IMG/VR virus record: IMGVR_UViG_3300000956_000003
Span: 1 to 64,000 of that record
DNA: 64,000 nucleotides
Direction: 5' to 3' (one strand)
Source of the DNA: a virus
Shown: positions 26,949 through 50,191 of the stretch, piece by piece
Position numbering within the stretch: position 1 is the stretch's first letter
Layout of the letters: every line of letters begins with the position of its first letter
The notes under the pieces: generated by a model
Told to the model about the DNA's origin: nothing
The model's database searches: none
Seen by the model: the letters and a program-made list of their open reading frames with translations, nothing else
Made by a program: the position numbers and the translations under genes

Positions 26949-26954
26949 CAAGCA

Positions 26955-27698: not shown

Positions 27699-27699
27699 C

Positions 27700-34158: not shown

Positions 34159-34358
34159 TGGCACTCGTAGTTGACAATAAGTACACGATCGGTGATACCG
34201 TTTACCTTGTAACTGACATTGATCAATTGCCGCGTTTAGTATTAGCGTATAAAATATATAAAGAGGGAGAAATTATGTATGAATTAATTCAAGGGACCAG
34301 CGCAAGCATGCACTATGCTTTTGAAATTCAAACAGAAAAATCGTTAATATCAACTTAA
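34149..34358 (+). CDS. hypothetical protein (69 aa)
   Basis: ORF. Confidence 0.3.
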   Translation: MGIMALVVDNKYTIGDTVYLVTDIDQLPRLVLAYKIYKEGEIMYELIQGTSASMHYAFEIQTEKSLIST

Positions 34359-35095
34359 TGGCTTATTCAATTCAAACCAGCCAGTTCTCATTTATACAGT
34401 TCGCCGAAAGTGATTCGGTAACCGCCTGTAATTGGCAAACTACCGAACAATGCTTACCGGTTTTCTCACCGGAAGATGTTTGGACCCAGTGGGTGATCAA
34501 TGCGGATACGGGCGTAGAGGCTGATGATCTTTGCGACTTAACAAACTCATTGATTACTGTGGGTCTGGTAAAAGCTTGTTCTGATGGCTTCCTAATTGAG
34601 TTCAGCGAAAAACCGGAACGATATAGAATAAGTTCAACACAGGTATTGTATGTTTGGAAACATGGGTTGCCCAGTTTCGATAGCGTGCTGGAGGTTGGCG
34701 ATTGTTTTCATATCAAAGTTGAGGTGGCCGATCAGTCCTGGTGTACGAATTGTTTTCAGCGGATAGGTGATGATTGCCACACATCAGTACTCGAGTATTA
34801 TAACGATGAAAACTACGCCGGATTTAATTATTGCGCATCCAATGAAGGGATAGATGCAGACGAGGATGATTGCGACCCGACTATCATACAATTTACCAAC
34901 CAGGCGAATATGGTTATTCCTTGGACGGCATATTTGAGTAATAAATACGGACTGGCCCCGACGATATCCGTATGGGTTCTTGATGGCGGCGAATTAGTTC
35001 AAGCAGGCATGAGGGTAGCATTTGACACTTATCCACCAACAGAAATACGCATTGATATGGGTGGACCTGGCACTGGCATTATAAAAATTATGTAG
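34358..35095 (+). CDS. hypothetical virion-module protein (245 aa)
   Basis: ORF. Confidence 0.4.
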   Translation: MAYSIQTSQFSFIQFAESDSVTACNWQTTEQCLPVFSPEDVWTQWVINADTGVEADDLCDLTNSLITVGLVKACSDGFLIEFSEKPERYRISSTQVLYVWKHGLPSFDSVLEVGDCFHIKVEVADQSWCTNCFQRIGDDCHTSVLEYYNDENYAGFNYCASNEGIDADEDDCDPTIIQFTNQANMVIPWTAYLSNKYGLAPTISVWVLDGGELVQAGMRVAFDTYPPTEIRIDMGGPGTGIIKIM

Positions 35096-35096
35096 T

Positions 35097-35294
35097 ATGA
35101 ATATTTGTTCTGACATAAAAATACCATCGAAACCGCTTGAATGCGGTGAGGTAACCGGCAGGGTCAAGAGGATAGAGCTTGGCGGACCGCTGTTAAAAAC
35201 ATGTCTTGTTTGTAGGGTTCAGTTTTTTGCAAATAGCGGTGTTATAGAATGTCCGAGGTGCCACACCATAAACGCCTATTCAATAAACAAATAA
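35097..35294 (+). CDS. small zinc-ribbon protein
   Basis: CGEV...CLVC...CPRCHT. Confidence 0.35.
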   Translation: MNICSDIKIPSKPLECGEVTGRVKRIELGGPLLKTCLVCRVQFFANSGVIECPRCHTINAYSINK

Positions 35295-36451
35295 TGGCAT
35301 TCATTAACCGCATACGACTTCCGATAAAAATTACTCGCCCTCAATTGACGGAGGAGCGAGAGTCTTTCACTAAGGCCAATGGTGCTACAAAAACCTTGTC
35401 TGTTGTTATCAAAAAGGAATACGAGGGACAGACTGACCATTGGCCGGAAAAAATGCATGACCGCCTTAAAATTGCCTTGGCTCATGATACAGTGACCATT
35501 GAAGGCGAAAGGTATGTAGGTGGTATTTCTGCTACAGGTGATTATACCATTGAATGGCCGGACTTCCTGGATCATCCTTTTGGTAAAGCACAATTTAAAG
35601 TATTGGCCACCCCCTTCAATGCATCGAATAGCAATTGCGCTACCTGTGATGACTTCGCCCAGGTGGTTTGTGAAGATGATGATCTCGGGACAATCGGGGA
35701 GGATGAGAGTCAGTCGGTAGCGGTACTGGACAATGATTCTATTTGCTGTTACCCCTTTGAAATATCCCTGGTAACCTTTAATTCGGATTACCTCGATAGC
35801 TGCGTTATCAATGGCAATAATATCGAGATACATACCAAAACTGGTTTAGTTACAGCAAATGATGTGAGATTGGTAACCTACCAGGTCACCTGCGAAAGCG
35901 GACTTTTTGACGAGGCGGATATTATTGCAGATATAGAGGGGACGGTAGAACCAGAATGCGGCCAACCATCGTTTTTGGACGCTGGTTTAGGATCGGCCGG
36001 ACCCGGGTCAGCGGCACCAAATTGGGATGAGCCGGTACCTGCGCCCGTTGGTTATAACTATGCACTGTATTTATTGCCCGATACGGTTACGCCCATTGAT
36101 TCCGGGTCCACTACTGCAACTTCGGTTCTTTACGAAGACCTGGAACCAGGGGATTACCGATTTACGCTTATTGTAGACTGCGGAGAAGGGGGTCTTTCAG
36201 CGCCGCTAGAGGTAGACTTTACGATTGCCGAAACCGCCCTTGGCTGCGGAAGATACCAATTGCGGGTTATCGCCCATCCATTGAGTCAGAATGCTACCTA
36301 CCAAGATTGTAATGGTGATGATCAGACCGTGAATTATACCAGCGGAAGCCCCAGGTTGATTTGCGCTGCCGAAACATCGCCCGGCAATCCCGTTTCCATT
36401 GTGCCTAACAATCCGGCTTCCACCCAAATACTTTATATCGATGAATGTTAA
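35294..36451 (+). CDS. hypothetical Cys-rich structural-module protein
   Basis: ORF; ATG 35294 preferred over tracked 35249. Confidence 0.4.
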   Translation: MAFINRIRLPIKITRPQLTEERESFTKANGATKTLSVVIKKEYEGQTDHWPEKMHDRLKIALAHDTVTIEGERYVGGISATGDYTIEWPDFLDHPFGKAQFKVLATPFNASNSNCATCDDFAQVVCEDDDLGTIGEDESQSVAVLDNDSICCYPFEISLVTFNSDYLDSCVINGNNIEIHTKTGLVTANDVRLVTYQVTCESGLFDEADIIADIEGTVEPECGQPSFLDAGLGSAGPGSAAPNWDEPVPAPVGYNYALYLLPDTVTPIDSGSTTATSVLYEDLEPGDYRFTLIVDCGEGGLSAPLEVDFTIAETALGCGRYQLRVIAHPLSQNATYQDCNGDDQTVNYTSGSPRLICAAETSPGNPVSIVPNNPASTQILYIDEC

Positions 36452-37316
36452 ACGCGGCATATTACTTATTGCGAGTGGTTCCCCCTTTTATGGGCGAATG
36501 GCCTTTAACTTATGCATGAGCATTAAGGCGACCGACCCGAACTTTCCTGTTGCCGTAGCGATTTCAGGCAGTTCACTGAACCATTTAAATAGCCGGCAGA
36601 AAGCGCTGTTCGATGAGATATTGTTTTTACCTTCAGAGACTTCTGGATTTGGAGCAAAATTGTTTCTTGATCAGATAAGTCCTTTCGAGGAAACTCTTTT
36701 TTTCGATGCGGATATGGCGTGGCTACCGAAGTATTCCCCTCATGTCCTATTCGACTCACTGAAAGATGTTGATTTTACAGCTATCACGGAAGGCTACTGT
36801 GATATGAAAACGCAGGACAAGGCTAACGCTAATTCAAAATATTACTTTTGGGCAGAGACAGAAGAAATTGCAGAGGTGTATAATATCAGGGAAGGAAATC
36901 TATATCAGTGGCGTAGTGAAGTAATGTATTTCAAGAAAAGCGAACGAACAGCAGCGTTCTTTAAGACTGCCCGTGAGGTATATGCCACACCCAATCTCAA
37001 CACGATTCATTTGTTTGCTAACTCTATACCTGACGAACTGGCTATTAATATCAGTGCCGCTATTCACGGAATAGAACCACACAAATACAAATGGATGCCC
37101 GCTTATTGGCCAAGAATGAGCGGTGGCCATGTACCGAGCCTGGAAGAACTTTATTCAAAGTATTATCTGTTGAGTTGTGGGAGCAACGTAACGACAGCGA
37201 ATACGAAATTGGCTTATAACCGGGTGGTAAAGGCGGCGGCCTATAAGTTGGGATTTTCGCACCTTTTCCCGCTCGCAAATAAGAAAGAAACGATGCCTGA
37301 CCGGCAAAGAATGTAA
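36441..37316 (+). CDS. putative GT-A fold nucleotide-sugar glycosyltransferase
   Basis: N-terminus ILLIASGSPFYGRMAFNLCMS then FFDADM (DxD) about 90 aa later, a GT8/Nucleotid_trans-like arrangement. Confidence 0.4.
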   Translation: MNVKRGILLIASGSPFYGRMAFNLCMSIKATDPNFPVAVAISGSSLNHLNSRQKALFDEILFLPSETSGFGAKLFLDQISPFEETLFFDADMAWLPKYSPHVLFDSLKDVDFTAITEGYCDMKTQDKANANSKYYFWAETEEIAEVYNIREGNLYQWRSEVMYFKKSERTAAFFKTAREVYATPNLNTIHLFANSIPDELAINISAAIHGIEPHKYKWMPAYWPRMSGGHVPSLEELYSKYYLLSCGSNVTTANTKLAYNRVVKAAAYKLGFSHLFPLANKKETMPDRQRM

Positions 37317-37326
37317 AACCTAAACA

Positions 37327-39132
37327 ATGGCACTACAAAGCATATATATTTTCGATGACCTGAGGCCTTATTTTGAGGGCAGCAACAGGCATTATTATTA
37401 CAAAGAATCAAAAGAATGTTGCGATAAGTTTGCGCCCCATGCTGATGGCGTTTATCCAGAGGAATTGATTGAGTGTCGGCGTCCAAATGAACCATTAGAG
37501 GTGAAGGATTACCGTAAAAAAATATGGAAGCCAAAGACAAAGCCAACGTTCACTAAAATTATCTCATCCCTATCTAAGATCCGCCGCTCTTCCGACTGGT
37601 CTATTAAGTACCCGGAAGATATTTTCAGCAAGATCAAAGAAGGGGAGAAGCTGGAAGACTATTGCGAAAAGAATTTTCCTTATTTCGGGTCCATGACGAC
37701 CTGGGTATTTTCTGTTCTGCTTAAAAAATACCTGACAGACCCAAATGCATGCATATTGGTTTTGCCTCTGGTAACGGCAGAGGTAGCCGAAACGGAATAC
37801 CTGAAACCTTACCCATTTATTTTTGACTCGTGCGATGTTATTGAGTACATGGACGGCGAGAAAGCTATACTGAATATACCGGAAGGCTGCACGTATCAAA
37901 CCAGGGCAGGCCGTGGAGTTTATGACAACAAGGGCAAGTCTTATTACGTGGTTGATAAGGGTGTTATTGAACGTTGGGATCAGATTGATAATAAAGGAAA
38001 TTATACTATTGTTTCCACCTTTGCGCACGGAATAGGACTTTTGCCAGTCTTTAAAATTGGTGGCGTTATCGGCCAATCTGAAGGCAATCATTTTTTGTAT
38101 GAATCACGTATAGAAGGTATTATCCCTGATCTGGATGAGGCATTGCGGGAGTATTCAGATTTACAGGCCGCCAAGGTGCTGCACATATTCCCTGAGCGTT
38201 GGGAATTCACGCAAAATGAGTGCGGAGTCTGCAAGGGATTGGGTAAAAGAAGAAACCCCATGTGGTATGAAGGATGTGGAGAAAGTGTATTGCCGGAAGT
38301 GCCCTGCGATGCTACCGGTTGCCATAACGGATACATTGCTGCAGGTCCGTACACTAAAATGATTATCCGCCCTACTAATAATGCATTGGAGGGTGGTGGC
38401 ACAATACCAAATCCACCAGCCGGTTATGTTGAAAAAGACGTTGAGATTGTGAAGGTGATGGAATTGAGCGTTAAGCAGCACATATATGACGCGCTGGCTG
38501 CTATCAACTTTCAGTTCCTGGAGCAAACGCCGTTGAATCAATCCGGAACCGCAAAGGAAGTCGATAAAGAAGAATTGAACAACACCGTTCACGCGATCGC
38601 CGAGGATTTAGTGAGGGTGATGGACCGCAATTATAAATTAACCGCCTACTACCGGTATAAAAACTTATACTCTGTTGCTGATATTGATAAAATGACTCCC
38701 GCGGTTGCAGTGCCTGAGCATTATGACCTCTTATCTTCTCAATTCATGCAGACAGAGGTTGATACGGCGAAGAAGTCCAAAATGAATCCTATTATTATCA
38801 ATGCCATGGAGATCGAATACAGTGGTAAAAGATTCATGGATGATCCGGAAATCAAAGACCGGCTGGAATTGGTATTGCGGCTAGACCCCTTACCAAATGT
38901 TTCCATGGACGAAAAAATGGGGATGTTATCAAATTCAACCATTACCAAAGAGACGGCTATCATCTCAGATAATATTCATGAGTTCGTGCAACGGGCCATT
39001 GAGGAAGACGAAGGTTTCGCGGAGAAAGAATTGAAGGAGCAAAAGGCCAAAATAATAGAATACGCAAAAGCGCAAATAGCAGAGAGCAGCGCAGCCGGAA
39101 AGGTTATAGCAAATGAACTTGCAGTTGCATAA
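37327..39132 (+). CDS. portal protein (putative)
   Basis: 601 aa with helical acidic C-terminus, immediately upstream of the MuF-like head morphogenesis gene (SPP1 gp6-gp7 synteny). Confidence 0.45.
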   Translation: MALQSIYIFDDLRPYFEGSNRHYYYKESKECCDKFAPHADGVYPEELIECRRPNEPLEVKDYRKKIWKPKTKPTFTKIISSLSKIRRSSDWSIKYPEDIFSKIKEGEKLEDYCEKNFPYFGSMTTWVFSVLLKKYLTDPNACILVLPLVTAEVAETEYLKPYPFIFDSCDVIEYMDGEKAILNIPEGCTYQTRAGRGVYDNKGKSYYVVDKGVIERWDQIDNKGNYTIVSTFAHGIGLLPVFKIGGVIGQSEGNHFLYESRIEGIIPDLDEALREYSDLQAAKVLHIFPERWEFTQNECGVCKGLGKRRNPMWYEGCGESVLPEVPCDATGCHNGYIAAGPYTKMIIRPTNNALEGGGTIPNPPAGYVEKDVEIVKVMELSVKQHIYDALAAINFQFLEQTPLNQSGTAKEVDKEELNNTVHAIAEDLVRVMDRNYKLTAYYRYKNLYSVADIDKMTPAVAVPEHYDLLSSQFMQTEVDTAKKSKMNPIIINAMEIEYSGKRFMDDPEIKDRLELVLRLDPLPNVSMDEKMGMLSNSTITKETAIISDNIHEFVQRAIEEDEGFAEKELKEQKAKIIEYAKAQIAESSAAGKVIANELAVA

Positions 39133-40091
39133 TGCCATCTTTCACCGACATATTAACACGCATCGAGGAAGCCATTGAGGATTTCAATAAGAAAATCCCG
39201 GCGGCACAGCAGAATATTCTTGATGGAATAGAGGAAGATCTACGGCGCCTGGACCTGAAAAACGGTAAGATAAAACCCACGGTCAACAATCTCAAGGTAG
39301 TAGCATCCATCAAAAATAAGCTGCTTAAAATCGTTCTGAATGATGATTACATTGAGGATGTAAAAAAGTATATCCAGGCATTTAAGGACGTTACAACACT
39401 ACAAAATGAATACTGGCAGTCGGTTGAAAAGAATTTCAAGCCAACGTCCATTTTAAAAGAAATCCGCAGCCTAGCTATTGAGGATACGGTAAGCAAATTA
39501 ACAGAAGCTGGCATTGGAAATGGGGTGGCTAGCAGGATTACCGACATTCTGAAAACCAATGTCACTACCGGCGGCTCACTAAAAGACCTTACGGCCCAGT
39601 TACGGGGTGGTTTAACGAATACCGATGCATCTGATGGGTATTTAGCGAAGTACGCCAAACAGGTCACTACAGATGCTATAACGCAGTATTCCCGGAACTA
39701 TACGCAACTGGTTTCGTCTGATCTGGGGTATGAATGGTACGCTTACCAAGGTACAGATATAAAGACGACGAGGCATTTCTGCGATGCGATGACTGACATA
39801 CGATACTTCCATTTAAGCCAAATACCGGGGTTACTGCAGGCGAAAGATCTATATTATTCAGACAAGGATGGCGGTAAAAAGAAGGTAGAGATCAACCCCA
39901 AAACAGATCTACCCTACGGTATGATCGAAGGCACCAATGCGGAGAACTTTTTTATCCGGGCCGGCGGGTATAATTGCCAGCATGCGATAAGACCAGTTAG
40001 TGACAAGCTGGTGCAGATGCAGGATAAAGCATTGTACGATAATGTTGTATCCACGCCTGAATATAAGGCTTGGAAGTCGGCCAATGGTTGA
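39132..40091 (+). CDS. phage head morphogenesis protein (Mu F / SPP1 gp7 family)
   Basis: C-terminal GGYNCQHAIRPV resembles the conserved H.NCRC region of Phage_Mu_F. Confidence 0.5.
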   Translation: MPSFTDILTRIEEAIEDFNKKIPAAQQNILDGIEEDLRRLDLKNGKIKPTVNNLKVVASIKNKLLKIVLNDDYIEDVKKYIQAFKDVTTLQNEYWQSVEKNFKPTSILKEIRSLAIEDTVSKLTEAGIGNGVASRITDILKTNVTTGGSLKDLTAQLRGGLTNTDASDGYLAKYAKQVTTDAITQYSRNYTQLVSSDLGYEWYAYQGTDIKTTRHFCDAMTDIRYFHLSQIPGLLQAKDLYYSDKDGGKKKVEINPKTDLPYGMIEGTNAENFFIRAGGYNCQHAIRPVSDKLVQMQDKALYDNVVSTPEYKAWKSANG

Positions 40092-40106: not shown

Positions 40107-40287
40107 ATGTTTCAAATCGTTGAATTTAGTTCTGAATGGCACCAGGTCGATACTACTTGTGATACCTGTACTGCATGCAAGGAGATCATTTACGGAAAGC
40201 AATACCAGCTATTTTTGAATAACCAGCCAACGGAGCAGATCATTTGCGAACCTTGTTATCAGGAAGTGATGAGGGAGGATGAGTAAT
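40107..40287 (+). CDS. small zinc-ribbon protein (59 aa)
   Basis: MFQIVEF...CDTCTAC...CEPC; below the track's length cut-off; convergent with the minus-strand cassette. Confidence 0.25.
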
Positions 40288-40290: not shown

Positions 40291-40770
40291 TTAATCGGCC
40301 TTTAGCCAATCCCTTGCTCGATCTTCGAGTGATTTATAATCGGAAATTTCTTTTCCTGTAATTGCAAAGTGGAGATTTTGAAGTTGATGCACAAATTGAA
40401 AAGTGCTGGATAGATTAGGAGAATACACCTCATTGCCAGACGCGAAGCAAAGCCGATACCTTGAACCCGTTTCGGGGAAATTTGGTCCCGGGAAGGAGAG
40501 GATTTTAAAAAAGGCAGTCAGGTCGTCATGAATATAAAATATGTATCCTTCCTTTTCGGATACCTGTTTGTATTCCCGCTTGAAACCCCATTGCTCCAGC
40601 CAGTTACCGGTTAGCGGAATACCCTGCATGGAATTGATTAAATGAGCATTGGATTGCTTAAACAGCTTGCCCATCATTCTAAAATCAAGCTCGATTTCCT
40701 CACCATCTACTATAATCCAATTGTTAAGTTTTATATCCCTTGAATGCAGTCGATTATTTACATCAATCAT
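40291..40770 (-). CDS. hypothetical protein, paralogue of 60964..61386
   Basis: Shares MI.xN / NNW / FVHQLQNL[HF][FY]A[IL]TG.E motifs with the second copy. Confidence 0.5.
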   Translation of the reverse strand: MIDVNNRLHSRDIKLNNWIIVDGEEIELDFRMMGKLFKQSNAHLINSMQGIPLTGNWLEQWGFKREYKQVSEKEGYIFYIHDDLTAFFKILSFPGPNFPETGSRYRLCFASGNEVYSPNLSSTFQFVHQLQNLHFAITGKEISDYKSLEDRARDWLKAD

Positions 40771-41351
40771 AGCGTTACTCTTATCATTTCGTAATCCTCA
40801 AATATATGCTTTCTTATAACCTCGTATTTACATACCCCTAACTGATTCTGTATTGCCCTCGGCTGCTGTGCTTTATACCACAAAGCCGCTATAAATTCCG
40901 GCCCACTTCGTGGGTGAGGTAGCATTTTATATTTACCGTGTAATTCTAAGACGGGAATTTTCAATCTTTGCAAATTGAATCTCATCTCATTATCTTCACT
41001 TCTCGAAAAGTAATCATTATGATACCCGCCAACCTTTTCAAATGTCGTCGGTTCAAACATAGTCACGCCACCTAGGTAATCACGCAACTGAATTTTACTT
41101 CCAGCCAACTGGGTGACACCTGGATTTGGACTGTAGTCAACCTCAACAGGTAGCATATCCACATCATGGGCAACGAAGTAACCAGGCTTGGCTTCCAGAT
41201 AACCAATGTTAATCAACCTCCCCCGGTTGAATGGTTTATCATCCGCCTGCTCAATGACAACAATCTTCGCATAAGGCAGATACGCGCGCATGTGCGGGAT
41301 GAATTGGGTTAAATGTTCTGGGCGATTTCGGTATGGTACGATGATGGTCAT
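40767..41351 (-). CDS. beta-1,4-galactosyltransferase-like glycosyltransferase (GT7/GT2-like)
   Basis: IIVPYRNRPEHL, FNRGRLINIGY, HDVDMLP, YLGGVTMF, SRSEDNEM match the conserved B4GalT-family blocks. Confidence 0.6.
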   Translation of the reverse strand: MTIIVPYRNRPEHLTQFIPHMRAYLPYAKIVVIEQADDKPFNRGRLINIGYLEAKPGYFVAHDVDMLPVEVDYSPNPGVTQLAGSKIQLRDYLGGVTMFEPTTFEKVGGYHNDYFSRSEDNEMRFNLQRLKIPVLELHGKYKMLPHPRSGPEFIAALWYKAQQPRAIQNQLGVCKYEVIRKHIFEDYEMIRVTL

Positions 41352-41848
41352 GGCTGCGTGTCTTTAGGAATATTAGGAAATATGCCCATCATTCGCTCCA
41401 TTTCACAGGAAAGATTTTGTGCGACGGCTAATAAATCTATCTTGTTTGCATCAACCTTATACACATCCTGGGGTCGCCATGTGCCTAATTCTACTTTATA
41501 TGAAATAAATTTTTCCTGGTTGTCTTTTAGGTATTGCGTTGGTGTAGGCGGGTCAGTTGAGAAATCAAAGCATTTCAAGAATTCGTCTGTTTGATCATTC
41601 TCGGTTGCAGGGTTTGGAGCGCTCATTAATATTGCTTTAATAAGGCAGTCCTTAATATCCCTAAAGGTTAAGCCTTTTACCTCAGTTTGACCACGTAAGC
41701 CGTTGTCTGTCCATGGTTGCCCGTCATATGGTCTCTCCCTATCATTGCGAAAGTCTGAACAGCTTTGTGTGCTCCATATATTAAACGCTAATTCATCTTT
41801 GAAGTCAGGGGATTCCGAATCCAGTATTGGTATATCTGCATCTATCAT
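41348..41848 (-). CDS. hypothetical protein (166 aa)
   Basis: ORF in the cassette operon. Confidence 0.4.
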   Translation of the reverse strand: MIDADIPILDSESPDFKDELAFNIWSTQSCSDFRNDRERPYDGQPWTDNGLRGQTEVKGLTFRDIKDCLIKAILMSAPNPATENDQTDEFLKCFDFSTDPPTPTQYLKDNQEKFISYKVELGTWRPQDVYKVDANKIDLLAVAQNLSCEMERMMGIFPNIPKDTQP

Positions 41849-42261
41849 TTTCGTAAAAGTTTAAGTGCCTGTGTCATTAAATGCGAGTGTAGGTATGCTT
41901 CCGACTCATATTCCCTGTTCCGATCAAGAATTTCAGGAAGAATAAACTGGCAAAGATGCAGACATTCATGCGCAAGCATAATCATATCCCAATCACAGAA
42001 CTCAAACGGTCGTTTTAAGATTAAATAAAAATAGGTTGATTCTTGGCCGCTTGTTTTTATAGTTACTGTTCTTTTAAGAGCGAAAAAGGTCCCGCCATCT
42101 ATCAGTGCCTTGTCTTCATTCAGGCCCAGTGCATATCCATGAGCTTTAATTTTTTTATAATAGGCAATTATCTCTTCATAAGTGTAGCCCACGGAGAAAC
42201 TTACATGCACAGGAAATATTCCTGTATTTAAGCATTCTATGAACCTTTTAGATTTTTTCAT
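41845..42261 (-). CDS. hypothetical protein with HExxH motif
   Basis: LAHECLHLCQF contains HECLH. Confidence 0.35.
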   Translation of the reverse strand: MKKSKRFIECLNTGIFPVHVSFSVGYTYEEIIAYYKKIKAHGYALGLNEDKALIDGGTFFALKRTVTIKTSGQESTYFYLILKRPFEFCDWDMIMLAHECLHLCQFILPEILDRNREYESEAYLHSHLMTQALKLLRK

Positions 42262-43135
42262 TCCTCAATTCCTCCAATATTTTTTGTTTGCACCCCTGGT
42301 AGGTGAAATACGGTTTAATTCTATCCAGGTTCTGCCGCAATACCGTGATCATCGGCTTTGGTACATCCGATAAGGCCTGTTTGATATCATCATTAGGGCC
42401 GAGCATAAGCCCGTAGTCGAAGGGTAAATTGTAGGGAAGTAAATGCTTGTCCGAAATATAAACTGGAATAGCGCCCTGTTCTATGGCTTCTGAGATCCGA
42501 AAAGACGTAGCACTATACCCGCGTGGACATAAGGCGAATACCGATCGGGCCATGGTGGTGCAGTACTCATCCATTTTCTGGTCCTTCGTGGAGATAAAAC
42601 ACCCTTCAATGCCTTCCAGGGCTTTTATCATTTTTCCTCGTATTTCATGCGTTATCTTGCCAACGAAAGAGGCATATAGGTCCCGGTTCTGAACTTTTTT
42701 TATTGGCTGTTGCTGGCTGATAAGTGGGATAGGATAATCGTTTCTACCGCCGGCCATACCAAATACTTTTATATCCAGCCCTTTAAAGTGGATTCTGTCC
42801 TTATTGTCTGGGCCATCATCATACTGGCATATCGTGTAGTACTTTTTGCTTCGGTCAAGGGAGTCAATAAAGCTCTGCAGGTGTTTAATGGAACGCAGAT
42901 CAGTGCCAAATTTGTTAGCGCAATAGTAGCTGGTCCAATGAATAGGGAGATAAAGCCTGTCGGCTTCCATCGCTGGCGAATAGGTTTCGAAATACCAGCG
43001 CTCAAATTCCAGGTGATTCGATGGGGGGTATTTGAAAGGGTGTTTAAGACGGAACTGCACCGGCACAGGGACAATCCCAGGGGGCGGTTGTCGCTTTGCT
43101 GAAACTACGCGTGGGTATCGGGGGCGGATGATCAT
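42248..43135 (-). CDS. exostosin-like glycosyltransferase (GT47-like)
   Basis: FALCPRGYSATSFRISEAIEQGAIPV matches the exostosin C-terminal signature; ATG at 43135 (MIIRPRYP) preferred. Confidence 0.55.
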   Translation of the reverse strand: MIIRPRYPRVVSAKRQPPPGIVPVPVQFRLKHPFKYPPSNHLEFERWYFETYSPAMEADRLYLPIHWTSYYCANKFGTDLRSIKHLQSFIDSLDRSKKYYTICQYDDGPDNKDRIHFKGLDIKVFGMAGGRNDYPIPLISQQQPIKKVQNRDLYASFVGKITHEIRGKMIKALEGIEGCFISTKDQKMDEYCTTMARSVFALCPRGYSATSFRISEAIEQGAIPVYISDKHLLPYNLPFDYGLMLGPNDDIKQALSDVPKPMITVLRQNLDRIKPYFTYQGCKQKILEELRNEKI

Positions 43136-43818
43136 AGCAGGGTTCTTTTGATGTATAAGGAATCTCCCCAACCCTGGTCTGTCCATTTCGTTTCTACCCG
43201 GCCAAAGTCCTCCAATAGCTTATCCAATTCAGTAATACCAGCCGCACCCTGGTAAAGGTTTGCATTGTCTTGGTTTACTTCTGTGTAAACGTAGTTGATA
43301 TGCTTCAACGTTTCTGCCGCCCCCATCAAAACCCGGTTTTCAAACCCCTGCACGTCCATATTGAGCAGGTTATATCGACTTCCAAGATTCAGGGAGTCAA
43401 GCGTGCATACCCGCACCTGTTCTGTGCCTTTAAATTGAATAGATGGGTAATGCTTCAGGTGTTCAACGGGCCTTAACAGGCTATTTGATTGACCCTTATT
43501 GGCGGTTTCGGTGTGCATGATTGCTGTTCCGTTCTCGGTCCCACAGGCTACATTAAATAGCTTGATATGGTGATGGGCGGCAAATTTTAATTGTAGTATC
43601 TGGTATGCCGCCTTACAGGGTTCAATCAAAACAACATCCTTAATACCGTGTTGGTGATAGGTTGCCACTTCCTCGCCGTGGTGGGCACCGCAGTGTATGA
43701 CTCCGGTTATTTTAAGCGAAAACTTTTTTACCAACGTTGAGAAATCTAAGAGCATAATGCAAATGTTAAAGCGATTAGTGAAAGGATTAAAGCCACACTG
43801 GAAATTATCATTGACCAT
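43132..43818 (-). CDS. FkbM-family SAM-dependent methyltransferase
   Basis: VIHCGAHHGEE and YNLLNMDVQGFENRVLMGA; start uncertain (internal M at MLLDFS). Confidence 0.65.
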   Translation of the reverse strand: MVNDNFQCGFNPFTNRFNICIMLLDFSTLVKKFSLKITGVIHCGAHHGEEVATYHQHGIKDVVLIEPCKAAYQILQLKFAAHHHIKLFNVACGTENGTAIMHTETANKGQSNSLLRPVEHLKHYPSIQFKGTEQVRVCTLDSLNLGSRYNLLNMDVQGFENRVLMGAAETLKHINYVYTEVNQDNANLYQGAAGITELDKLLEDFGRVETKWTDQGWGDSLYIKRTLL

Positions 43819-43885
43819 TTCCAGTATATAATATCCGGGTCTTTGCTACGGATCAATGCCGTTAGCAGTTCGCGGGTGGTGATTT

Positions 43886-44434
43886 TCATCTTTCAGACTG
43901 AATTAAAACAATGGGTGATTGGCAATCATAAAATACATTTGTAAATGGCCAGCCCAAGCGTTTTGCGCTTACATTAACAGGCAGGCCAGCTCGATAAAAT
44001 TCCTGATCACATGTGTGCAGGTCTTCGATATAATAATGCCTACCATTATAAAGGCCGTAGAACGTCATCATTTGATCGCGAGAATTATGTGAACCGTCAT
44101 CGATCACAATATCGAAATCTTCATTACGTAGCGCATCCAGCAGCACATAGTCGCACTGATTCCCTTGGCGCAGCACAATGTTTTTACAACCACATTCATC
44201 CAGTAAATAACTGCGCACATCTGCTTCTGAATGATCGGCAAACAAATCAACACCCCATATTTCAGTATCAGGAAAATATTCCGACCACATTGCCAGACTC
44301 GCCCCTTTAAATACTCCAATTTCCAAAAGCTTCTTAGGCTTTTTTGGCAACGTTCTTTCATAAAACTGACAGTAGTTATGCGCAGTGCTGCTTTTGTCTG
44401 TTCCGTATTTTAGGGCCAGTTCATCTAATGTCAT
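43886..44434 (-). CDS. class I SAM-dependent methyltransferase (GTDK-motif sugar O-methyltransferase-like)
   Basis: KYGTDKSSTAHNYCQFYE...LLEIGVFKGASLAMW...GVDL. Confidence 0.55.
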   Translation of the reverse strand: MTLDELALKYGTDKSSTAHNYCQFYERTLPKKPKKLLEIGVFKGASLAMWSEYFPDTEIWGVDLFADHSEADVRSYLLDECGCKNIVLRQGNQCDYVLLDALRNEDFDIVIDDGSHNSRDQMMTFYGLYNGRHYYIEDLHTCDQEFYRAGLPVNVSAKRLGWPFTNVFYDCQSPIVLIQSER

Positions 44435-45071
44435 GCGTGGTAATTAAAAAGTTTGCAAATCGGTAGTCTTCAACAAAGTTTTCTTCCGTCAGTTCAACCA
44501 GGGTATTCCCTACCAGCTCATACGCCTTGTAGCCGAACTGACCGACAAACTGTATAACATCTACGAAGGTTATTCCCGCATCCGGGTAAGTGCCACCATA
44601 TTCCACCTGAATGAAGTGGATGTGTTGTTGGCCAAGTAACCCGGCAGCGCCTTTGAGTACTTTTAGTTCAGCGCCCTCGACGTCTATTTTCAGGAAGTGG
44701 ATGTGTGTAAACCCGGCAACGCCGCATAAATTATCAACCGTTGTGCATGACTTTTCTTCCTCCACATAATCCACCTGGTTAAACACATCGCGGTTGTAAG
44801 TACTGGAAAGCTCATCAGCTTTATTGAGGCATCTATAAAATACCTCCCTCCCTTCATGATCGCTCAGAAGGACGCCATATACGTACCTGTGCTTTAACTG
44901 AGCATATAAAAAATCATTAGGCTCGAATAGCAGGCACCACGCATCCGGGAACTTACTCATCACGTAGTCCGTCCATGCCCCTTTATAAGCTCCCACATCA
45001 AAAATGATCGGCTTACCTGGGAGGTACGGAATACACTTGTCGAATATTATTTTTTCGTCGGGAGTTAGCAT
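44421..45071 (-). CDS. FkbM-family SAM-dependent methyltransferase
   Basis: IFDVGAYKGAWT and IHFLKIDVEGAELKVLKGA. Confidence 0.75.
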   Translation of the reverse strand: MLTPDEKIIFDKCIPYLPGKPIIFDVGAYKGAWTDYVMSKFPDAWCLLFEPNDFLYAQLKHRYVYGVLLSDHEGREVFYRCLNKADELSSTYNRDVFNQVDYVEEEKSCTTVDNLCGVAGFTHIHFLKIDVEGAELKVLKGAAGLLGQQHIHFIQVEYGGTYPDAGITFVDVIQFVGQFGYKAYELVGNTLVELTEENFVEDYRFANFLITTHDIR

Positions 45072-45077
45072 ATACGA

Positions 45078-45827
45078 TCATATTTTTATCCAGTTTTCGC
45101 AATAAATGTCTGTCGGATCAAGATTAGAATTCCCGGGCCCAAACCAAACAGACGGTGCGATGACTATTTTATCAGGGTTTGGGTTCAGCCATGCTCCCCA
45201 CCAGGAGAATGAACTGTTGGCGATGATGTTGTTTACGCAACCGGCCATTATAGCCAACGCAAGTTTAGGCTCAACCACATCGCAATAAACAACATCAACC
45301 CCCGTTGCATAGCTTTCTATGTATTCCTTTAGAATTGATTTAGCGGCTTGTAAATCATCGGAAAACACTAAGAACTTTCTGGTGTGTGATTTCGATACCA
45401 TTAAATCCATGGCATTGTAAAGGTATTCTGCGGTTACTGGCGGATGCTTATCCTTAAACTGTATATAATCACATAGTCTGATGTGTACCGAGCAGTGGTC
45501 TGATAAAACCGGTACAATTCCGAACAGATCTATTATTTCCTCACTTTTATCCACGAAATACTTTTCGCACTGCCAATAGCCATGGAGTTTAACATCTTTC
45601 AGGTATGCAGGGATAGGGGAATATCTATGACTGTGCTCTGTATAGTTTCTAAAAAGGCGTCGTGGATTAACCTTTGGTAAATGTTTAAAATAGGTTTCCC
45701 CGGTGTAGCTTCCTTGCGCTTTATCCGGGAAAGCAAAAGACTGACCAACGCGCCAGGCATGAGCCGCTGATGTGGCAATTTGAAACATTTGGTTGCCCAT
45801 CCTTCCTATGAGGTCGCAGCTTACCAT
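45078..45827 (-). CDS. GT11-family alpha-1,2-fucosyltransferase-like glycosyltransferase
   Basis: GRMGNQMFQIA (GT11 motif I), HGYWQCEKYF, SFSWWGAWL. Confidence 0.75.
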   Translation of the reverse strand: MVSCDLIGRMGNQMFQIATSAAHAWRVGQSFAFPDKAQGSYTGETYFKHLPKVNPRRLFRNYTEHSHRYSPIPAYLKDVKLHGYWQCEKYFVDKSEEIIDLFGIVPVLSDHCSVHIRLCDYIQFKDKHPPVTAEYLYNAMDLMVSKSHTRKFLVFSDDLQAAKSILKEYIESYATGVDVVYCDVVEPKLALAIMAGCVNNIIANSSFSWWGAWLNPNPDKIVIAPSVWFGPGNSNLDPTDIYCENWIKI

Positions 45828-46057
45828 GTATGTAATTGATTAGCAAAAAAATGTTTTGAACAATATTTCACAATTCCGCTGCGCGAAAATAATCGTTGCA
45901 AGAAATTTCTGTTATCTTTTATCTTCACCTTAATCTTAAACACCGCAACTGATGATCGCAACCTGCCATCATCATATTTGTTGAAAAACTTTGTCATGTA
46001 AGTAAATCGCTTACCATTCTCGACGAACTGATCTAATATTATGTCTGGATTATTCAT
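45821..46057 (-). CDS. hypothetical protein (78 aa)
   Basis: ORF. Confidence 0.35.
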   Translation of the reverse strand: MNNPDIILDQFVENGKRFTYMTKFFNKYDDGRLRSSVAVFKIKVKIKDNRNFLQRLFSRSGIVKYCSKHFFANQLHTW

Positions 46058-46815
46058 AACGCCATTATCATTTTCTTGATCTTTTCCGATTGCTCCATAT
46101 TGTATTTCGCGTCTTCAAGGAAGCCAGATCGGCTGTGCACCAAATGCTCGTACCTCATGTCAGGAACAATATAAAATGAGTTGTCGGCCGCCAGCCATAG
46201 GTAAGAAAACCATAAAGTATCTGTCGCTTTCATTTCCGGATTATGCTGGTAAACATTTAAATATTCATCACGATGCACGATATAGTTACAGCAGTTTAGG
46301 GACATCGTAAGTTCTTTACCATGAGGTCCGCGAAGCAATTGGGCAACATTGTTACGGTTTATGGTTACGGCCGCAAGGTTGGTAAAATTGAAATTGGGCA
46401 TTGCGAAATCCGGACAATATATTACCGTCTTTGGATGCATTTGGGTATTGCTCAGGGTCGGTGAGAAGTTGACTAAATCAAATTCCCATTCTGCTCGTAG
46501 ACGGTCATTTTCAAAGGCATCAAAATATTCAGGTGCAACAACGTTATCCGAGTCAATAATGGCGACCCATTCATTTGTAGCGTATGAAATCGCGTCGGCC
46601 TTGTTCCTGCTCATGCCCCGGTTATAAGCCTGCTGCATCACGCGCACATGCGCGTAGGGGACGAAATAATCCCGCAGTTTTTCATAACTGCCGTCGGTGC
46701 TTTTGTCGTCGAGAATCACAATATCGTCTATACGCGGATCATTCAGCACCTGAGCGCATGATTTGATCGGGAGATCAAAACGGTTGTAGGTTGTGATGGC
46801 TAAGCTTATTTTCAT
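46054..46815 (-). CDS. GT2-family glycosyltransferase
   Basis: ISLAITTYNR, VILDDKSTDGS, IDSDN (DxD). Confidence 0.8.
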   Translation of the reverse strand: MKISLAITTYNRFDLPIKSCAQVLNDPRIDDIVILDDKSTDGSYEKLRDYFVPYAHVRVMQQAYNRGMSRNKADAISYATNEWVAIIDSDNVVAPEYFDAFENDRLRAEWEFDLVNFSPTLSNTQMHPKTVIYCPDFAMPNFNFTNLAAVTINRNNVAQLLRGPHGKELTMSLNCCNYIVHRDEYLNVYQHNPEMKATDTLWFSYLWLAADNSFYIVPDMRYEHLVHSRSGFLEDAKYNMEQSEKIKKMIMAL

Positions 46816-46819
46816 GAGA

Positions 46820-47116
46820 TTAATTGAAAACGATAAATGATTTCTTTCGGCCGGTGTAGAAAACTATTTTATGTTTGAAATGTTCATAAAAATCCCATTC
46901 AATAGGTGCCTCTCGGTTAAAATTGCCATATAAATCAAAATAACCTTTTCCCACAATTGATATTTCACTCACATTAATACTTGGCTTGAGTAAGAATTGC
47001 AAATGCGCCCTGGGACCGCAAAGGTCCTGGAGGAGTTTTTGTTTTTCCTTTTCGTTTTCTTCTAAATTGCCGCAGCAATCACCGAACCCATAGTTAATAT
47101 TACAGTTCGATATCAT
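46820..47116 (-). CDS. hypothetical protein (98 aa)
   Basis: ORF. Confidence 0.4.
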   Translation of the reverse strand: MISNCNINYGFGDCCGNLEENEKEKQKLLQDLCGPRAHLQFLLKPSINVSEISIVGKGYFDLYGNFNREAPIEWDFYEHFKHKIVFYTGRKKSFIVFN

Positions 47117-47433
47117 GGCTTAAAAATTATTTCACTACCCATTTCCCCAACAATAGCGGGATTCCCGGGCGCACCTGTCGGAAATCTGGGTGTCGGCTGC
47201 GAAGCAATCATTGCAACCTGCAAGGCTCCCATCGGCGCTGCCATGATCAGCCTAAGCCGCGCCCGCTGTTTATTGATGCGCTTAAGTGGGCGTCTATCAA
47301 TTTTTCCGAATGCGCGTTTTGGGGGGTATGCCTCTTTAGCGTTTCGGATTATTGTGAACGCTGTATCCGTAATACAGGCAGCCAGACTAAGTGCCTTTTG
47401 TTTTCTGAATTGCGAAATATCTGTTTCGTTCAT
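47113..47433 (-). CDS. hypothetical protein (106 aa)
   Basis: ORF. Confidence 0.4.
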   Translation of the reverse strand: MNETDISQFRKQKALSLAACITDTAFTIIRNAKEAYPPKRAFGKIDRRPLKRINKQRARLRLIMAAPMGALQVAMIASQPTPRFPTGAPGNPAIVGEMGSEIIFKP

Positions 47434-47621
47434 GGCTTAACAGGTTTTCCCTCCCGACAGCGTTCCCACTCCCGGATAATTGAGTATATAGTTTGCTCCA
47501 AACTGTATTGGGAAATACTTCGTTCCGCCTTAATCTTACCCTGCTCCATTAAGATGATTTTAAATACATCATCCGGCATCTTTTTGAGAGGGTAAACCTT
47601 GCCATTTCGGTCTTCACTCAT
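47430..47621 (-). CDS. small protein, first gene of the minus-strand cassette (possible regulator)
   Basis: SISQYSLEQTIYSIIREW looks helix-turn-helix-like; weak. Confidence 0.3.
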   Translation of the reverse strand: MSEDRNGKVYPLKKMPDDVFKIILMEQGKIKAERSISQYSLEQTIYSIIREWERCREGKPVKP

Positions 47622-47683: not shown

Positions 47684-47710
47684 AGTATTTTTGTTTTACA
47701 ACATAATTCT

Positions 47711-47980
47711 ATGCTCAAAGGAGATTATTTAAGAGTGCTGAGTCCGAAGACCACGAACGGTATTAATGTGAAATTGGATGAGGACGACAGGGTAGAGTAC
47801 AAGGAAACCTTTCTACCCCTTACTGCAAAGAAGGCGCTCGAAGAACAGAACAAAAAACTTCCTGATCACTTAAAGAAGAAAATTGAGCCGGTTTATTCGG
47901 GGATTGAACCCGAAAAGTCGGAAGGTCAACAATATCAGCCCATGCGTAAAAAGCCAGGGCCGAAACCGAAAAATCGTTAA
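47711..47980 (+). CDS. hypothetical basic protein (89 aa)
   Basis: ORF. Confidence 0.4.
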   Translation: MLKGDYLRVLSPKTTNGINVKLDEDDRVEYKETFLPLTAKKALEEQNKKLPDHLKKKIEPVYSGIEPEKSEGQQYQPMRKKPGPKPKNR

Positions 47981-48081: not shown

Positions 48082-49029
48082 ATGGCAAAAAAAGTAATTG
48101 ATTTCTTGAAGTCTTTAGCCGCTAAGGCAGGTGCGAATATGGAAGATGAAGCATTGAAAACGGCCTTTGCCGCAGTAAATGCTGATGCAGAATTGCCGGA
48201 TGAGCTTGTCACCGCAATTGATAACGGGCTGCTGTCTGTTGCCAATGCGAAGAACAACCACCCGGAGATTAAAAAGCACTATTTCGCCCAAGCATATAAC
48301 GGACTTGACAAAGAACTTGATGACTTTATTGCCGAAGAAAAACTCCCCGAAGAAATGGTTGCGGCCATTAAGGCCGAACAATCATCAACTAAACGCGCTA
48401 AACTGGTGGCCCTGAAGATCAAGGATCTACAACAGCAGAAAGCGAATGCCGGTAAGTCTGACAAGGAGGAACTGAATAAGCAGATAGCCGACCTGAATAA
48501 GGAACTGCGGGATATTAAGGACAAGGAGCAGAGTATTCATGCTGATTACAAAAAGCAGATCCAGGAGGTCAAAATGGGTCATGTTTTGGGTGGCTTACTC
48601 GGCTCTTACAAAACCGTCTTTGATGAACTCGATCCCGCTACGAAGGAAATTACTTTGAAGTCCATTATAAATAAGAATCTCGGAATCAAAAAGGCTCAAC
48701 TAAGCCTGGATGAGTCAGGTAACCTGGCTCTGATCGGTGCCGATGGTGCTAATGTATTCGGTGATGATCACCGGCCATTGACCCCGAAAGCCTTTCTGGA
48801 TTCTATAATGGCAAACGAAAAGATATTAAAGGTTACTGAAAACAGTAACAACAATTCTTCCAACAACGGCTCTAACGGGCAACACTTCAACGGCCAGCAA
48901 CGGCAACAGTTTAACAACGGCAACCAGAATCAAAATGGTAATGCCGGTAAAAAGAACACGGTCCTCGCCTCGCTATTACAGGAGAGTCAAACAGCTCTTG
49001 ACCTGGCGGGTAAATCACCTGTTCTGTAA
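48082..49029 (+). CDS. scaffolding protein (putative)
   Basis: Helical charged coiled-coil-like protein with Q/N-rich tail, immediately upstream of the capsid candidate. Confidence 0.4.
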   Translation: MAKKVIDFLKSLAAKAGANMEDEALKTAFAAVNADAELPDELVTAIDNGLLSVANAKNNHPEIKKHYFAQAYNGLDKELDDFIAEEKLPEEMVAAIKAEQSSTKRAKLVALKIKDLQQQKANAGKSDKEELNKQIADLNKELRDIKDKEQSIHADYKKQIQEVKMGHVLGGLLGSYKTVFDELDPATKEITLKSIINKNLGIKKAQLSLDESGNLALIGADGANVFGDDHRPLTPKAFLDSIMANEKILKVTENSNNNSSNNGSNGQHFNGQQRQQFNNGNQNQNGNAGKKNTVLASLLQESQTALDLAGKSPVL

Positions 49030-49060: not shown

Positions 49061-50191
49061 ATGGCCACCGGATTTTGTCCGAGCCTGCTTTATCATATAA
49101 ATGAGATAGCGGGCGAAAATGCTCCTGCGCGTAAGATGCACGTTGCCGGTTTTCTTGCTATGTTGTTCTGTTGCCAGAACAGCTCAGTATCACCCCTTAA
49201 TGATCCTTTTGCAAACGGTCACCAACGCGGATTGCAAATAAAATACAGGCGCCGGCCAGTGCTTGGCGATGTGCAGGATGAAGACAATTGCGATATCAAC
49301 ACGCAACCGGGATACCTGGAATGGACAATCCCAACCCTTTTACACCGTCAGGTTTCTTTTCATATATCGGACGATCTGATCAGCCGGTATTGCGAAGATG
49401 CAAGCCGTATGCGCGCAACAGGCGCTCCTCCCACTCAGGTAATGATGGAAGTATATGACCTGATCATTGAACACGCTAACATCTTGATGCGGGCCATCAA
49501 CCGTGCAGTTGTTACCTCACAAGCTACCGAATTCGGGGTTAACGTAACCACTGGTAGCGATACCGGTAAGGTGATCAATATACCTCGTAATGGCAATGAT
49601 TTTGTTTTGGATAACGGTATCATAGACATGATGCAGGATATCCAGGAGAACGAAATCTGCGGTGATCCTTGTATTGTCGGTGGTGGTATTTATGCCGCTT
49701 ACGACAAAGCCCGGGCCATTGCCTGCTGTAATGCCGCAGGAATTGATCTGTCCCGCACCGGTGTTCCGAACTTCTTCTTTGACAAGGATACCCAGTCGAT
49801 TTGGGGTACCAATTCAATCGGCCTCTTTGCGCCTGGTAGCGTGAAGTTCATTAGCCGTAACAAATTCGTTCGTGGATTTGCCGGCCAGAAGGGTACCAGC
49901 TTCTTCACAACACTCCCATTGCCGGTTCAGGAATTTGGTTGCGCTGACGATTGTCTCCGCGACCTGGTACTTGACATGCAATTGAAATACTTCGATTGCC
50001 CGACCGATGACGGTAATGGCGGAACCATTGAGCGCGGATGGCAGGTAATTCTGTCTAAGGATTTCGCACTGTGGACACAACCTACCGATGCCTTCCAGGC
50101 AACCGATGAACTGTTCGAAACCAATGGAACGCTGAAATACTTTGTAGCAAATACAAGCTATGGCGGCGATTCATACGCATACGCATTCTAA
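49061..50191 (+). CDS. major capsid protein (putative)
   Basis: 376 aa ORF following the scaffold-like gene; synteny only. Confidence 0.45.
   Translation: MATGFCPSLLYHINEIAGENAPARKMHVAGFLAMLFCCQNSSVSPLNDPFANGHQRGLQIKYRRRPVLGDVQDEDNCDINTQPGYLEWTIPTLLHRQVSFHISDDLISRYCEDASRMRATGAPPTQVMMEVYDLIIEHANILMRAINRAVVTSQATEFGVNVTTGSDTGKVINIPRNGNDFVLDNGIIDMMQDIQENEICGDPCIVGGGIYAAYDKARAIACCNAAGIDLSRTGVPNFFFDKDTQSIWGTNSIGLFAPGSVKFISRNKFVRGFAGQKGTSFFTTLPLPVQEFGCADDCLRDLVLDMQLKYFDCPTDDGNGGTIERGWQVILSKDFALWTQPTDAFQATDELFETNGTLKYFVANTSYGGDSYAYAF

Follow-up and report, generated by a model that had tools for sequence, protein, structure and literature searches.

A glycan-enzyme cassette in a swappable slot between the portal and capsid genes of a temperate phage lineage linked to Bacteroidota: possible virion glycosylation

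To our knowledge, glycan coats on virions have so far been shown only for mycobacterial phages and algal viruses. In chlorovirus PBCV-1, soluble glycosyltransferases (GTs) and sugar O-methyltransferase activity (A064R and others) build a fucose-containing, methylated capsid glycan in the cytoplasm, independently of a host export-coupled pathway. For bacterial viruses, the literature searched reports virion glycosylation only for actinobacteriophages, and we found in it no description of virion glycosylation, or of a gene cassette of the present kind, in phages of Bacteroidota. O-methyltransferase and GT genes of mycobacteriophage Corndog (cluster O) are reported to glycosylate its capsid and tail tube (Freeman et al. 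2023, as cited in PMC11600133 and PMC12363180), and the GT genes of Che8-type phages (cluster F) lie near the right end of the genome (PMC11256854); Che8 gp110 and Corndog gp38 are the essential GTs of these systems. Here we analyse a block of glycan-tailoring genes at 40291-47621 on the minus strand of a 64,000-nucleotide (nt) stretch, positions 1 to 64,000 of IMGVR_UViG_3300000956_000003 (hereafter the window), which comes from a temperate phage of a large uncharacterised lineage linked to metagenome-assembled genomes (MAGs) of Bacteroidota. The block lies between the portal and capsid genes, and we consider the chance close to even that it is a phage-borne soluble glycan pathway decorating the phage's own virion proteins.

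The chlorovirus system differs from this locus in belonging to a eukaryotic giant virus, in its N-linked glycans and in its scattered genes rather than one cassette. The Corndog locus is more similar in layout. There the portal gene (gp34; Phage_portal, E = 1.7e-43) is followed by a TylF/Methyltransf_24 gene (gp35), the GT genes gp36-38 (gp37 GT2-like, gp38 GT25-like), a protease gene (gp39) and then the capsid gene, and in the window the order is portal, a 319-amino-acid (aa) head-module protein (p319), the cassette, a scaffold-like protein and the major capsid protein. Both loci place an O-methyltransferase of the TylF/Methyltransf_24 kind and several GT-A enzymes in the portal-to-capsid gap, both encode soluble enzymes without export machinery, and both belong to soil phages. 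The mycobacteriophage-like arrangement proposed in the original prediction therefore holds for the Corndog gap of cluster O, but neither for strand, since the Corndog genes share the strand of the head genes and those of the window do not, nor for cluster F, whose genes lie at the right end. The GT families also differ, being GT2-like and GT25-like in Corndog but GT2, GT7, GT11 and GT47, together with a core GT8, in the window, as do the hosts (Actinomycetota for the mycobacteriophages, Bacteroidota for the window). Capsid and tail-tube glycans have been demonstrated for the mycobacteriophages, whereas for the phage of the window virion glycans are a prediction. The accessible parts of the mycobacteriophage papers make no mention of a lineage-wide variable slot such as the one described below.

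The cassette consists of 14 consecutive minus-strand open reading frames (ORFs), each of at least 63 aa, which overlap or lie a few bases apart; the original prediction had counted eleven in the same interval, whose ends coincide with the first and last ORF. Nearly all other genes of the window are on the plus strand, save a few near the lysogeny module. The cassette is close to the remainder of the window in GC content (0.40-0.45) and departs from it only in its strand skews, which are flipped. Profile searches confirmed all seven of the enzymes that had been recognised from the translations. In the direction of transcription, the first of them is a GT2 enzyme of the GT-A type (46054-46815; Glycos_transf_2, 1.7e-17, 64.3 bits against a Pfam gathering cut-off of 23.3), followed by an enzyme of GT11, the alpha-1,2-fucosyltransferase family (45078-45827; Glyco_transf_11, 9.9e-18, 64.8 bits against 23.9; phrog_2644, 3.4e-37). 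Three methyltransferases come next: FkbM-family methyltransferase 2 (44421-45071; Methyltransf_21, 7.6e-19; TIGR01444, 1.6e-17), a class I S-adenosylmethionine-dependent methyltransferase related to Methyltransf_24/TylF (MT24; 43886-44434; Methyltransf_24, 3.5e-5) and FkbM-family methyltransferase 1 (43132-43818; Methyltransf_21, 1.7e-15; TIGR01444, 4.7e-21; phrog_8156, 4.6e-27). The two FkbM enzymes are very divergent from each other (pairwise E of 1e-4), and methyltransferases 1 and 2 score, respectively, 58.0 and 68.9 bits with the Pfam FkbM profile (cut-off 22.7) and 75.7 and 64.3 bits with TIGR01444 (cut-off 37.7). At 25.1 bits, MT24 falls just below the Methyltransf_24 cut-off of 26.3; it also matches a PHROG methyltransferase family (phrog_21658, 1.3e-28). 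The last two GTs are a GT47/exostosin-like enzyme (42248-43135; Exostosin_GT47, 2.1e-18, 67.1 bits against 33.4; RXYLT1_C, 3.7e-6) and a GT7-like, or beta-1,4-galactosyltransferase-like, GT-A enzyme (40767-41351; Glyco_transf_7N, 9e-15, 54.9 bits against 27; Glyco_transf_7C, 4e-7, 30.1 bits against 23), in which both domain halves are present and which has B4GalT7 as its best PDB sequence match (9e-16). The GT47-like gene probably starts at its second ATG, giving 295 aa; the listed ORF extends to 43186. Two GT47-like homologs of about 485 aa (P0344 and P0347) are natural fusions with an FkbM methyltransferase domain, which ties two neighbouring cassette enzymes to one pathway.

The catalytic motifs of these enzymes are kept in relatives. 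The DSDN motif of GT2 is invariant (8 relatives aligned), as is the PRGY..SFR..EA..PVY motif of the GT47-like enzyme (7 relatives aligned), and the HDxD motif of the GT7-like enzyme is conserved (12 relatives aligned). The H.R..DY motif of GT11 is mostly conserved among the aligned relatives and reads HIRLCDY in the window; we take the motif of this family to be HxRRxD. A search of NCBIfam returned FkbM and sub-threshold generic GT2 matches only, with no more specific enzyme names, and searches of PDB sequences with the four cassette GTs returned generic family members only. We infer that the substrates of the methyltransferases are sugar hydroxyls. Pfam matches to "Serglycin" were artefacts of the Gly-Ser linkers joining concatenated ORFs and were discarded.

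None of the cassette proteins contains a hydrophobic, transmembrane-like segment (the maximum Kyte-Doolittle mean over 19 residues stays below 1.6), so they are predicted to be soluble, and neither the cassette ORFs nor the rest of the window matched Wzx, Wzy, phosphoglycosyltransferase or acyltransferase families in the profile searches. The absence of these components and of membrane anchors had been predicted; the further step from missing anchors to a cytoplasmic pathway does not follow, because the GTs that build undecaprenyl-linked O-units are also soluble. For the same reason, missing anchors are no argument against an alternative, also raised in the original prediction, in which the cassette remodels the surface glycans of the host. 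The soluble GTs and methyltransferases would then act at the inner face of the membrane on undecaprenyl-linked intermediates of O-glycan, lipopolysaccharide (LPS) or capsule, adding fucose, hexose and methyl groups, and a host flippase and transferase would export the product. The receptor of the tailspike would be altered, with the result that the serotype is converted, superinfecting phages are excluded or progeny are protected from readsorption. The TarP enzyme of a Staphylococcus aureus prophage is a precedent for this, as a soluble phage GT that acts on a lipid-linked wall polymer. On either account, the pathway must use host pools of nucleotide sugars, because no gene for their synthesis was found in the window.

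Additional evidence came from the head genes around the cassette. The core order of the lineage is a gene for a 400-aa fn3-like protein, a GT8-like gene, portal, p319, the slot that holds the cassette, an 89-aa gene, the scaffold-like gene and the capsid gene. Just upstream of the portal gene, the GT8-like gene (36438-37316, plus strand) has no Pfam or PHROG match. Its AlphaFold2 (AF2) model (pLDDT of 94.3) matches glycogenin in Foldseek (E = 9e-9, TM-score of 0.54-0.65, probability of 1.0), and other top PDB matches are the UGGT catalytic domain, Skp1 alpha-GalT, LgtC and WbbM. The DxD motif (D90, D92) is invariant in 55 homologs. The modelled fold indicates a GT-A enzyme closest to GT8 structures and thus a glycogenin-like, retaining GT, in agreement with the GT-A gene originally predicted next to the portal gene. 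The listed ORF begins at a TTG at 36399; a start at the ATG at 36438 gives a protein that agrees in length with the homologs. The gene is core to the lineage and is present in relatives with an empty slot too. Its place in the head operon, on the strand of the late genes, even in those phages suggests an acceptor that is intrinsic to the phage.

The portal protein (37327-39132, plus strand; phrog_7376 portal, 3.6e-14) is conserved at 33-97% identity in all related loci. The major capsid protein of 376 aa (49061-50191, plus strand) has the HK97 fold: in the Foldseek search with an AF2 model built from 52 homologs (pLDDT of 73), nearly all of the top 50 matches are phage capsid proteins (probability of 0.97-1.0), and the few others are encapsulins or an engineered cage, likewise of HK97 fold. 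Its 350 homologs have a uniform length of 373-404 aa. Portal and capsid were thus identified as predicted, whereas the names MuF and scaffold, also given to flanking genes, reflect position and composition. The MuF-like position is that of p319 (39132-40091, plus strand), which is conserved beside the portal in 23 loci and has no Pfam or PHROG match. The scaffold-like protein (48082-49029, plus strand), likewise without a profile match, is helical and rich in A/E/K with an N/Q/G-rich tail, and is encoded directly upstream of the capsid gene. Between p319 and the cassette, the gap is filled by a 59-aa ORF with a CxxC...CxxC pattern (40107-40286, plus strand; no Pfam match), whose stop and the convergent stop of the last gene in the cassette are 4 nt apart. 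At the right boundary of the slot stands the 89-aa head-module gene (47711-47980, plus strand), with homologs in 10 loci including the cassette-free L028. A TAnnTTTG box, TATTTTTG, is found at 47686-47693 on the plus strand, 18 nt before the ATG of the 89-aa gene; TAnnTTTG is the -7 box typical of Bacteroidota promoters. We found no equally clear TAnnTTTG box for the divergent minus-strand unit, and a scan of 39-49 kb for sigma-70 promoters and terminators gave counts equal to the shuffled expectation and was uninformative, as expected for Bacteroidota.

We read the content of the slot in about 20 relatives (denoted here by L numbers). Glycan cassettes fill it in all but two of those with a readable slot. 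The type A slot, on the minus strand with the order GT7, GT47, FkbM, MT24, (FkbM), GT11 and GT2, is shared by the window, L008, L037, L039, L040, L041, L044, L042/L046, a JGI contig of 13 kb and, in part, L045. A short hybrid with GT7, MT24 and a GT2-like gene occupies the slot in L016 and L018. In type B (L017, L019, L021, L022, L027 and partly L020), FkbM and TylF O-methyltransferase genes are joined by three small GT2-like genes and a two-domain GT2 of 420-436 aa. Type C, represented by L026 (6872-12256, plus strand), has the type B order along transcription but is inverted in place, so that it runs in the direction of portal and p319. Its additions are a 102-aa ORF, which looks cupin-like from its sequence and has no profile match, and a GDP-mannose 4,6-dehydratase (6e-114), with which L026 itself would cover the 6-deoxyhexose precursor pathway at least in part. 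The slot is empty in L028 and L033, with 62 and 444 bp between the flanking genes. These comparisons demonstrate that, across the lineage, the gap between portal and capsid genes serves as a glycan locus whose content can be swapped and inverted. A search for flanking repeats that could account for the swapping or inversion gave only short, chance-level matches.

Turnover within the slot occurs at several scales. Small genes come and go among very close relatives, since a contig with a 97%-identical GT8 gene carries an extra 240-aa gene. The GT11 proteins of L037 and L039 are only 30-33% identical to that of the window, as against 54-59% for L040 and L041, which suggests that a distant allele has taken the place of this gene in some relatives. 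In contrast, GT7 through FkbM1, which make up the left half of the cassette, are collinear with L044 at about 67% DNA identity, the same as for the flanking head genes. This equal divergence indicates that the cassette has long resided in the head module while its content is reshuffled.

Genes of other kinds have also entered the unit. L039 carries a Tad3 gene (PF25185) between FkbM and GT11 (18964-19554, minus strand), an RNA ligase gene (PF09414, RNA_ligase) heads the unit in L037 (20078-20863, minus strand), L045 (1464-2222, minus strand) and L046 (1100-1840), and HNH endonucleases occur in the slot or unit of L008 and L017. Tad3 and RNA ligase are lytic-cycle functions, and their presence in the unit of relatives argues for expression during infection and not only in lysogens. 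As anti-defence-type genes, they would also suit an account in which the glycan is attached to modified bases of the phage DNA as a shield against restriction, as in T4, RB69 and the metaviromic GT clusters of Pyle et al., and the placement beside packaging and head genes would fit modification before packaging. LPS-related GTs of phages, of both GT-A and GT-B type, attach one to three sugars to 5-hydroxymethylcytosine, and the clusters of such GTs are in some cases located near structural and anti-defence genes (Pyle et al., bioRxiv 10.1101/2023.12.21.572611; Lee et al., PMC13326640). However, such clusters are defined by an adjacent 5mYOX/TET, ThyA-like or C5-methyltransferase enzyme, and our Pfam scan of the window, which covered ORFs of at least 55 aa outside the already annotated genes with E-values of up to 1e-3, found no 5-methylpyrimidine dioxygenase (TET/JBP), thymidylate-synthase-like hydroxymethylase or C5 methyltransferase. 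It yielded only an N6_N4_Mtase and a weak Dam-like match in the window, beyond which presumably about 2.9 kb of the source contig extend. A set of four oligosaccharide-assembly GTs and three sugar O-methyltransferases is also more elaborate than any of the DNA glycans described in the accessible text of these papers, which does not name GT11, GT47 or FkbM among DNA-modifying enzymes. We therefore regard glycosylation of phage DNA as very improbable.

Half of the cassette ORFs (7 of the 14) have no glycan-related annotation, and several of them vary among relatives. Transcription would begin with a 63-aa gene (47430-47621), conserved in L008, L022, L026, L027, L040, L041 and L044. From its sequence we suspect that it encodes a small DNA-binding regulator. 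In L026, where the cassette is inverted, this gene is kept on the minus strand (12251-12433), divergent from the head genes. It is followed by a 106-aa ORF (47113-47433) with homologs in L022 and L027 and by a 98-aa ORF (46820-47116) without any match. The C terminus of the 106-aa protein resembles a segment of a 1006-aa protein of L037 (tblastn, 46% identity over 43 aa, E = 1.7e-7), which is the counterpart of the protein encoded at 28940-31984 of the window. Between GT2 and GT11 lies a 78-aa ORF (45821-46057) with no match and no homolog in the relatives that were read. A 138-aa protein with an HExxH motif, HECLH (41845-42261; phrog_20436, 1.4e-26), may on its sequence be a small metallopeptidase-like protein, and the adjacent 166-aa protein (41348-41848) has no family match and a homolog only in L044 among the relatives read. 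The last gene encodes a 159-aa protein (40291-40770; phrog_10066, 2.9e-13) with a paralog at 60964-61386 (minus strand), next to the lysogeny module; the two share a C-terminal FVHQLQNL..T(G)xE motif, and a third copy of this type of protein is found inside the L026 cassette.

These uncharacterised ORFs leave room for a different acceptor, such as a small protein or lipid of the phage, a cytoplasmic protein of the host or a free methylated oligosaccharide, or for the cassette being cargo of a permissive insertion site. The slot does tolerate unrelated genes: L042 (13713-20870, corresponding to L046 8038-16372) has, between p319 and the type A cassette, an additional island of about 8 kb with a 474-aa AAA ATPase and DUF932, DUF8296 and DUF7736 proteins, which may be a mobile element or serve defence or anti-defence. 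Homologs of the GT11 and GT47-like genes without established function are also found in cyanophages and huge phages. Among known phages, GT11 homologs occur in 103 records at about 30% identity, mainly of T4-like cyanophages, uncultured marine viruses and huge phages, and GT47-like homologs in only 4 records, one Synechococcus phage and otherwise huge phages. The GT genes of T4-like cyanophages and huge phages have been discussed as genes for cell-wall synthesis and modification rather than as part of a head module, and their clusters are likewise multi-GT, with sugar epimerases (PMC12801897). Unlike the temperate phage of the window, however, they belong to lytic cyanobacterial myoviruses or megaphages. 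All 295 homologs of the GT47-like protein are on contigs of at most 98 kb. The concentration of glycan cassettes in this one slot, and the further GT that is a core gene of the head operon, are hard to ascribe to chance cargo, and we consider another acceptor or mere cargo unlikely.

If the cassette instead glycosylates the virion, the following pathway can be proposed from family chemistry. During the lytic cycle, the core GT8-like enzyme, the cassette GT2 enzyme or both would act first, in the cytoplasm, attaching the initial sugar to a structural protein. A beta-linked hexose would come from the GT7-like enzyme, and onto it the GT11 enzyme would place an alpha-1,2-fucose from host GDP-fucose; the GT47-like enzyme, and GT2, would add further residues. 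The two FkbM enzymes and the TylF-related methyltransferase would then O-methylate the sugars, with up to three different O-methylations. The product would be a short, branched, fucosylated and O-methylated oligosaccharide, and, since alternative cassettes occur across the lineage, the "glycotypes" of the particles would differ between related phages.

We favour virion glycosylation because the enzyme families are real, with intact catalytic motifs and no hydrophobic segments, because the position of the cassette matches the Corndog precedent, and because the window holds no membrane, flippase, polymerase or priming component that would pass the glycan to the envelope. The long residence of the left half in the head module, the core GT8-like gene and the lytic-cycle genes in the unit of relatives point in the same direction. 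The inverted cassette of L026, running with the head genes, indicates that "moron-like" expression from the opposite strand is not required. Several observations weigh against this reading. The capsid protein, uniform in length among its 350 relatives, shows no cassette-linked C-terminal extension like those that carry glycans in mycobacteriophages, and a search for cassette-linked features such as a Ser/Thr-rich tail gave no lead to an acceptor. The cassette shows no sequence similarity to the Corndog enzymes, as tblastn of all cassette proteins against the Corndog locus returned nothing below E = 0.4, with a value of 0.43 for MT24 against gp35. In most relatives the cassette is opposite to the late-gene strand, L028 and L033 manage without it, and the entry of unrelated genes such as the AAA ATPase and DUF932 in L042/L046 means that its location may reflect a permissive insertion site. 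Finally, a temperate phage with a pectin-lyase-like tailspike is the classic setting of serotype conversion.

This last point leads back to remodelling of the host surface. The phage is temperate, as judged from an HTH_26 repressor-like gene (62553-62888, minus strand; 6.2e-6) in the lysogeny module at the right end and from the N terminus of a tyrosine integrase (63178-64000, plus strand; Arm-DNA-bind_5, 5.2e-7; Phage_int_SAM_5, 4.3e-9), which is cut by the end of the window. A pectin-lyase-like protein of 1215 aa (52367-56014, plus strand; phrog_32881 pectin lyase activity, 3.7e-24), a putative tailspike or depolymerase whose counterpart in L045 matches Pect-lyase_RHGA_epim, implies a polysaccharide receptor. 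Serotype-converting temperate phages (P22 and SfV with GtrABC, Sf6 with Oac, D3 and epsilon15) likewise combine a glycan-degrading tailspike with genes that alter surface glycans. The antisense orientation in most relatives and the behaviour of the slot as a hot spot for accessory genes would also fit remodelling, as would the rapid diversification of content, with GT11 alleles of 33% and 59% identity at a similar core distance, which resembles that of surface antigens. Bacteroidota O-glycans are fucosylated and methylated, and their loci encode soluble GTs and methyltransferases (PMC8698959, PMC6120980).

However, unlike the modules of serotype-converting phages, which comprise one to three genes and adjoin the integrase or attachment site, the cassette has seven enzymes and is part of the head module, separated from the integrase by about 15 kb and away from the attachment-site end. 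GtrA, GtrB and other Gtr-type membrane proteins, O-acetyltransferase, Wzy and an inhibitor are all absent from the Pfam results for the window. Remodelling also leaves unaccounted for a core GT in the late head operon even in cassette-free phages, a cassette co-directional with the head genes in L026, and Tad3 and RNA ligase genes in the operon of relatives. The co-divergence of the left half with the head genes, as for vertical inheritance, is a weaker point and silent on the acceptor. On this balance, we consider remodelling of host glycans unlikely, if the least so of the alternatives to virion glycosylation.

The lineage itself can be placed by its relatives. A profile search with the portal protein recovered 4 viral, 23 metagenomic and 8 genome loci. 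The genome loci are MAGs of Crocinitomicaceae, Chitinophagaceae, Flavobacteriales and unclassified Bacteroidetes, plus a single Rhodoferax bin, and one portal-bearing locus is embedded in a Chitinophagaceae contig of 1.2 Mb. Together with the Bacteroidota-type integrase domains, these loci support the Bacteroidota host that had been predicted. Homologs number 309 for the GT8-like gene and 350 for the capsid gene, many of them on contigs of 60-77 kb. Neither megablast with the DNA of 36-52 kb nor tblastn with the portal and capsid proteins found a match in 50,697 phage records, which indicates that the lineage is absent from sequenced isolates. The rest of the window comprises a replication module at 5-14 kb (exonuclease, helicase, N6/N4 DNA methylase and primase-polymerase), the large terminase gene (24214-25461), virion genes from about 25.8 kb to 57 kb and an M15 peptidase endolysin gene (60390-60869); no tRNA genes were found in it. 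The spacing of terminase and portal genes is unusual, at 12 kb (24214-39132). Between them lie genes for a Gly-rich, tail-fibre-like protein (25843-26709), a homing endonuclease (26955-27698), a 1014-aa protein with a tape-measure-like segment (28940-31984; weak PHROG tape-measure match) and a 724-aa virion protein. Elsewhere, the window encodes an SPFH/Band_7 protein (22246-23046, plus strand), labelled "lipoprotein" in PHROGs (phrog_200), and a response-regulator receiver-domain protein (58171-58686, plus strand; Response_reg, 6.5e-11), and in L044 a PAS-domain protein is found in the tail-end region corresponding to the response-regulator gene.

Phage genes for glycan tailoring and virion glycosylation are already known as kinds. 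What is new here is the host phylum, the set of enzymes, the pairing of a core glycogenin-like GT with a variable cassette and the lineage-wide swappable slot. This pairing leads us to propose, tentatively and as a possibility, a two-tier glycosylation of the particle, in which the glycogenin-like GT primes a virion protein and the swappable, invertible cassette elaborates the glycan, diversifying the glycotypes. If so, it would be the first virion glycosylation system in phages of Gram-negative hosts and the first evidence that phage particles undergo glycan serotype diversification as bacterial surfaces do. Virion glycosylation would then extend to phages of the Gram-negative Bacteroidota, and other phages could be searched for the same architecture of a core priming GT with a variable cassette. 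Coating with a glycan would influence the stability of the particles, their adsorption to soil and mucus, host defences that sense capsids and the recognition of therapeutic phages by antibodies. If the O-glycan or LPS of the host is remodelled instead, the cassette would represent a novel kind of lysogenic conversion in Bacteroidota, carried out by several soluble enzymes, and would matter for the specificity between phages and hosts in soil and freshwater communities. In both cases, the related contigs, more than 300 in number, constitute a natural experiment in cassette swapping.

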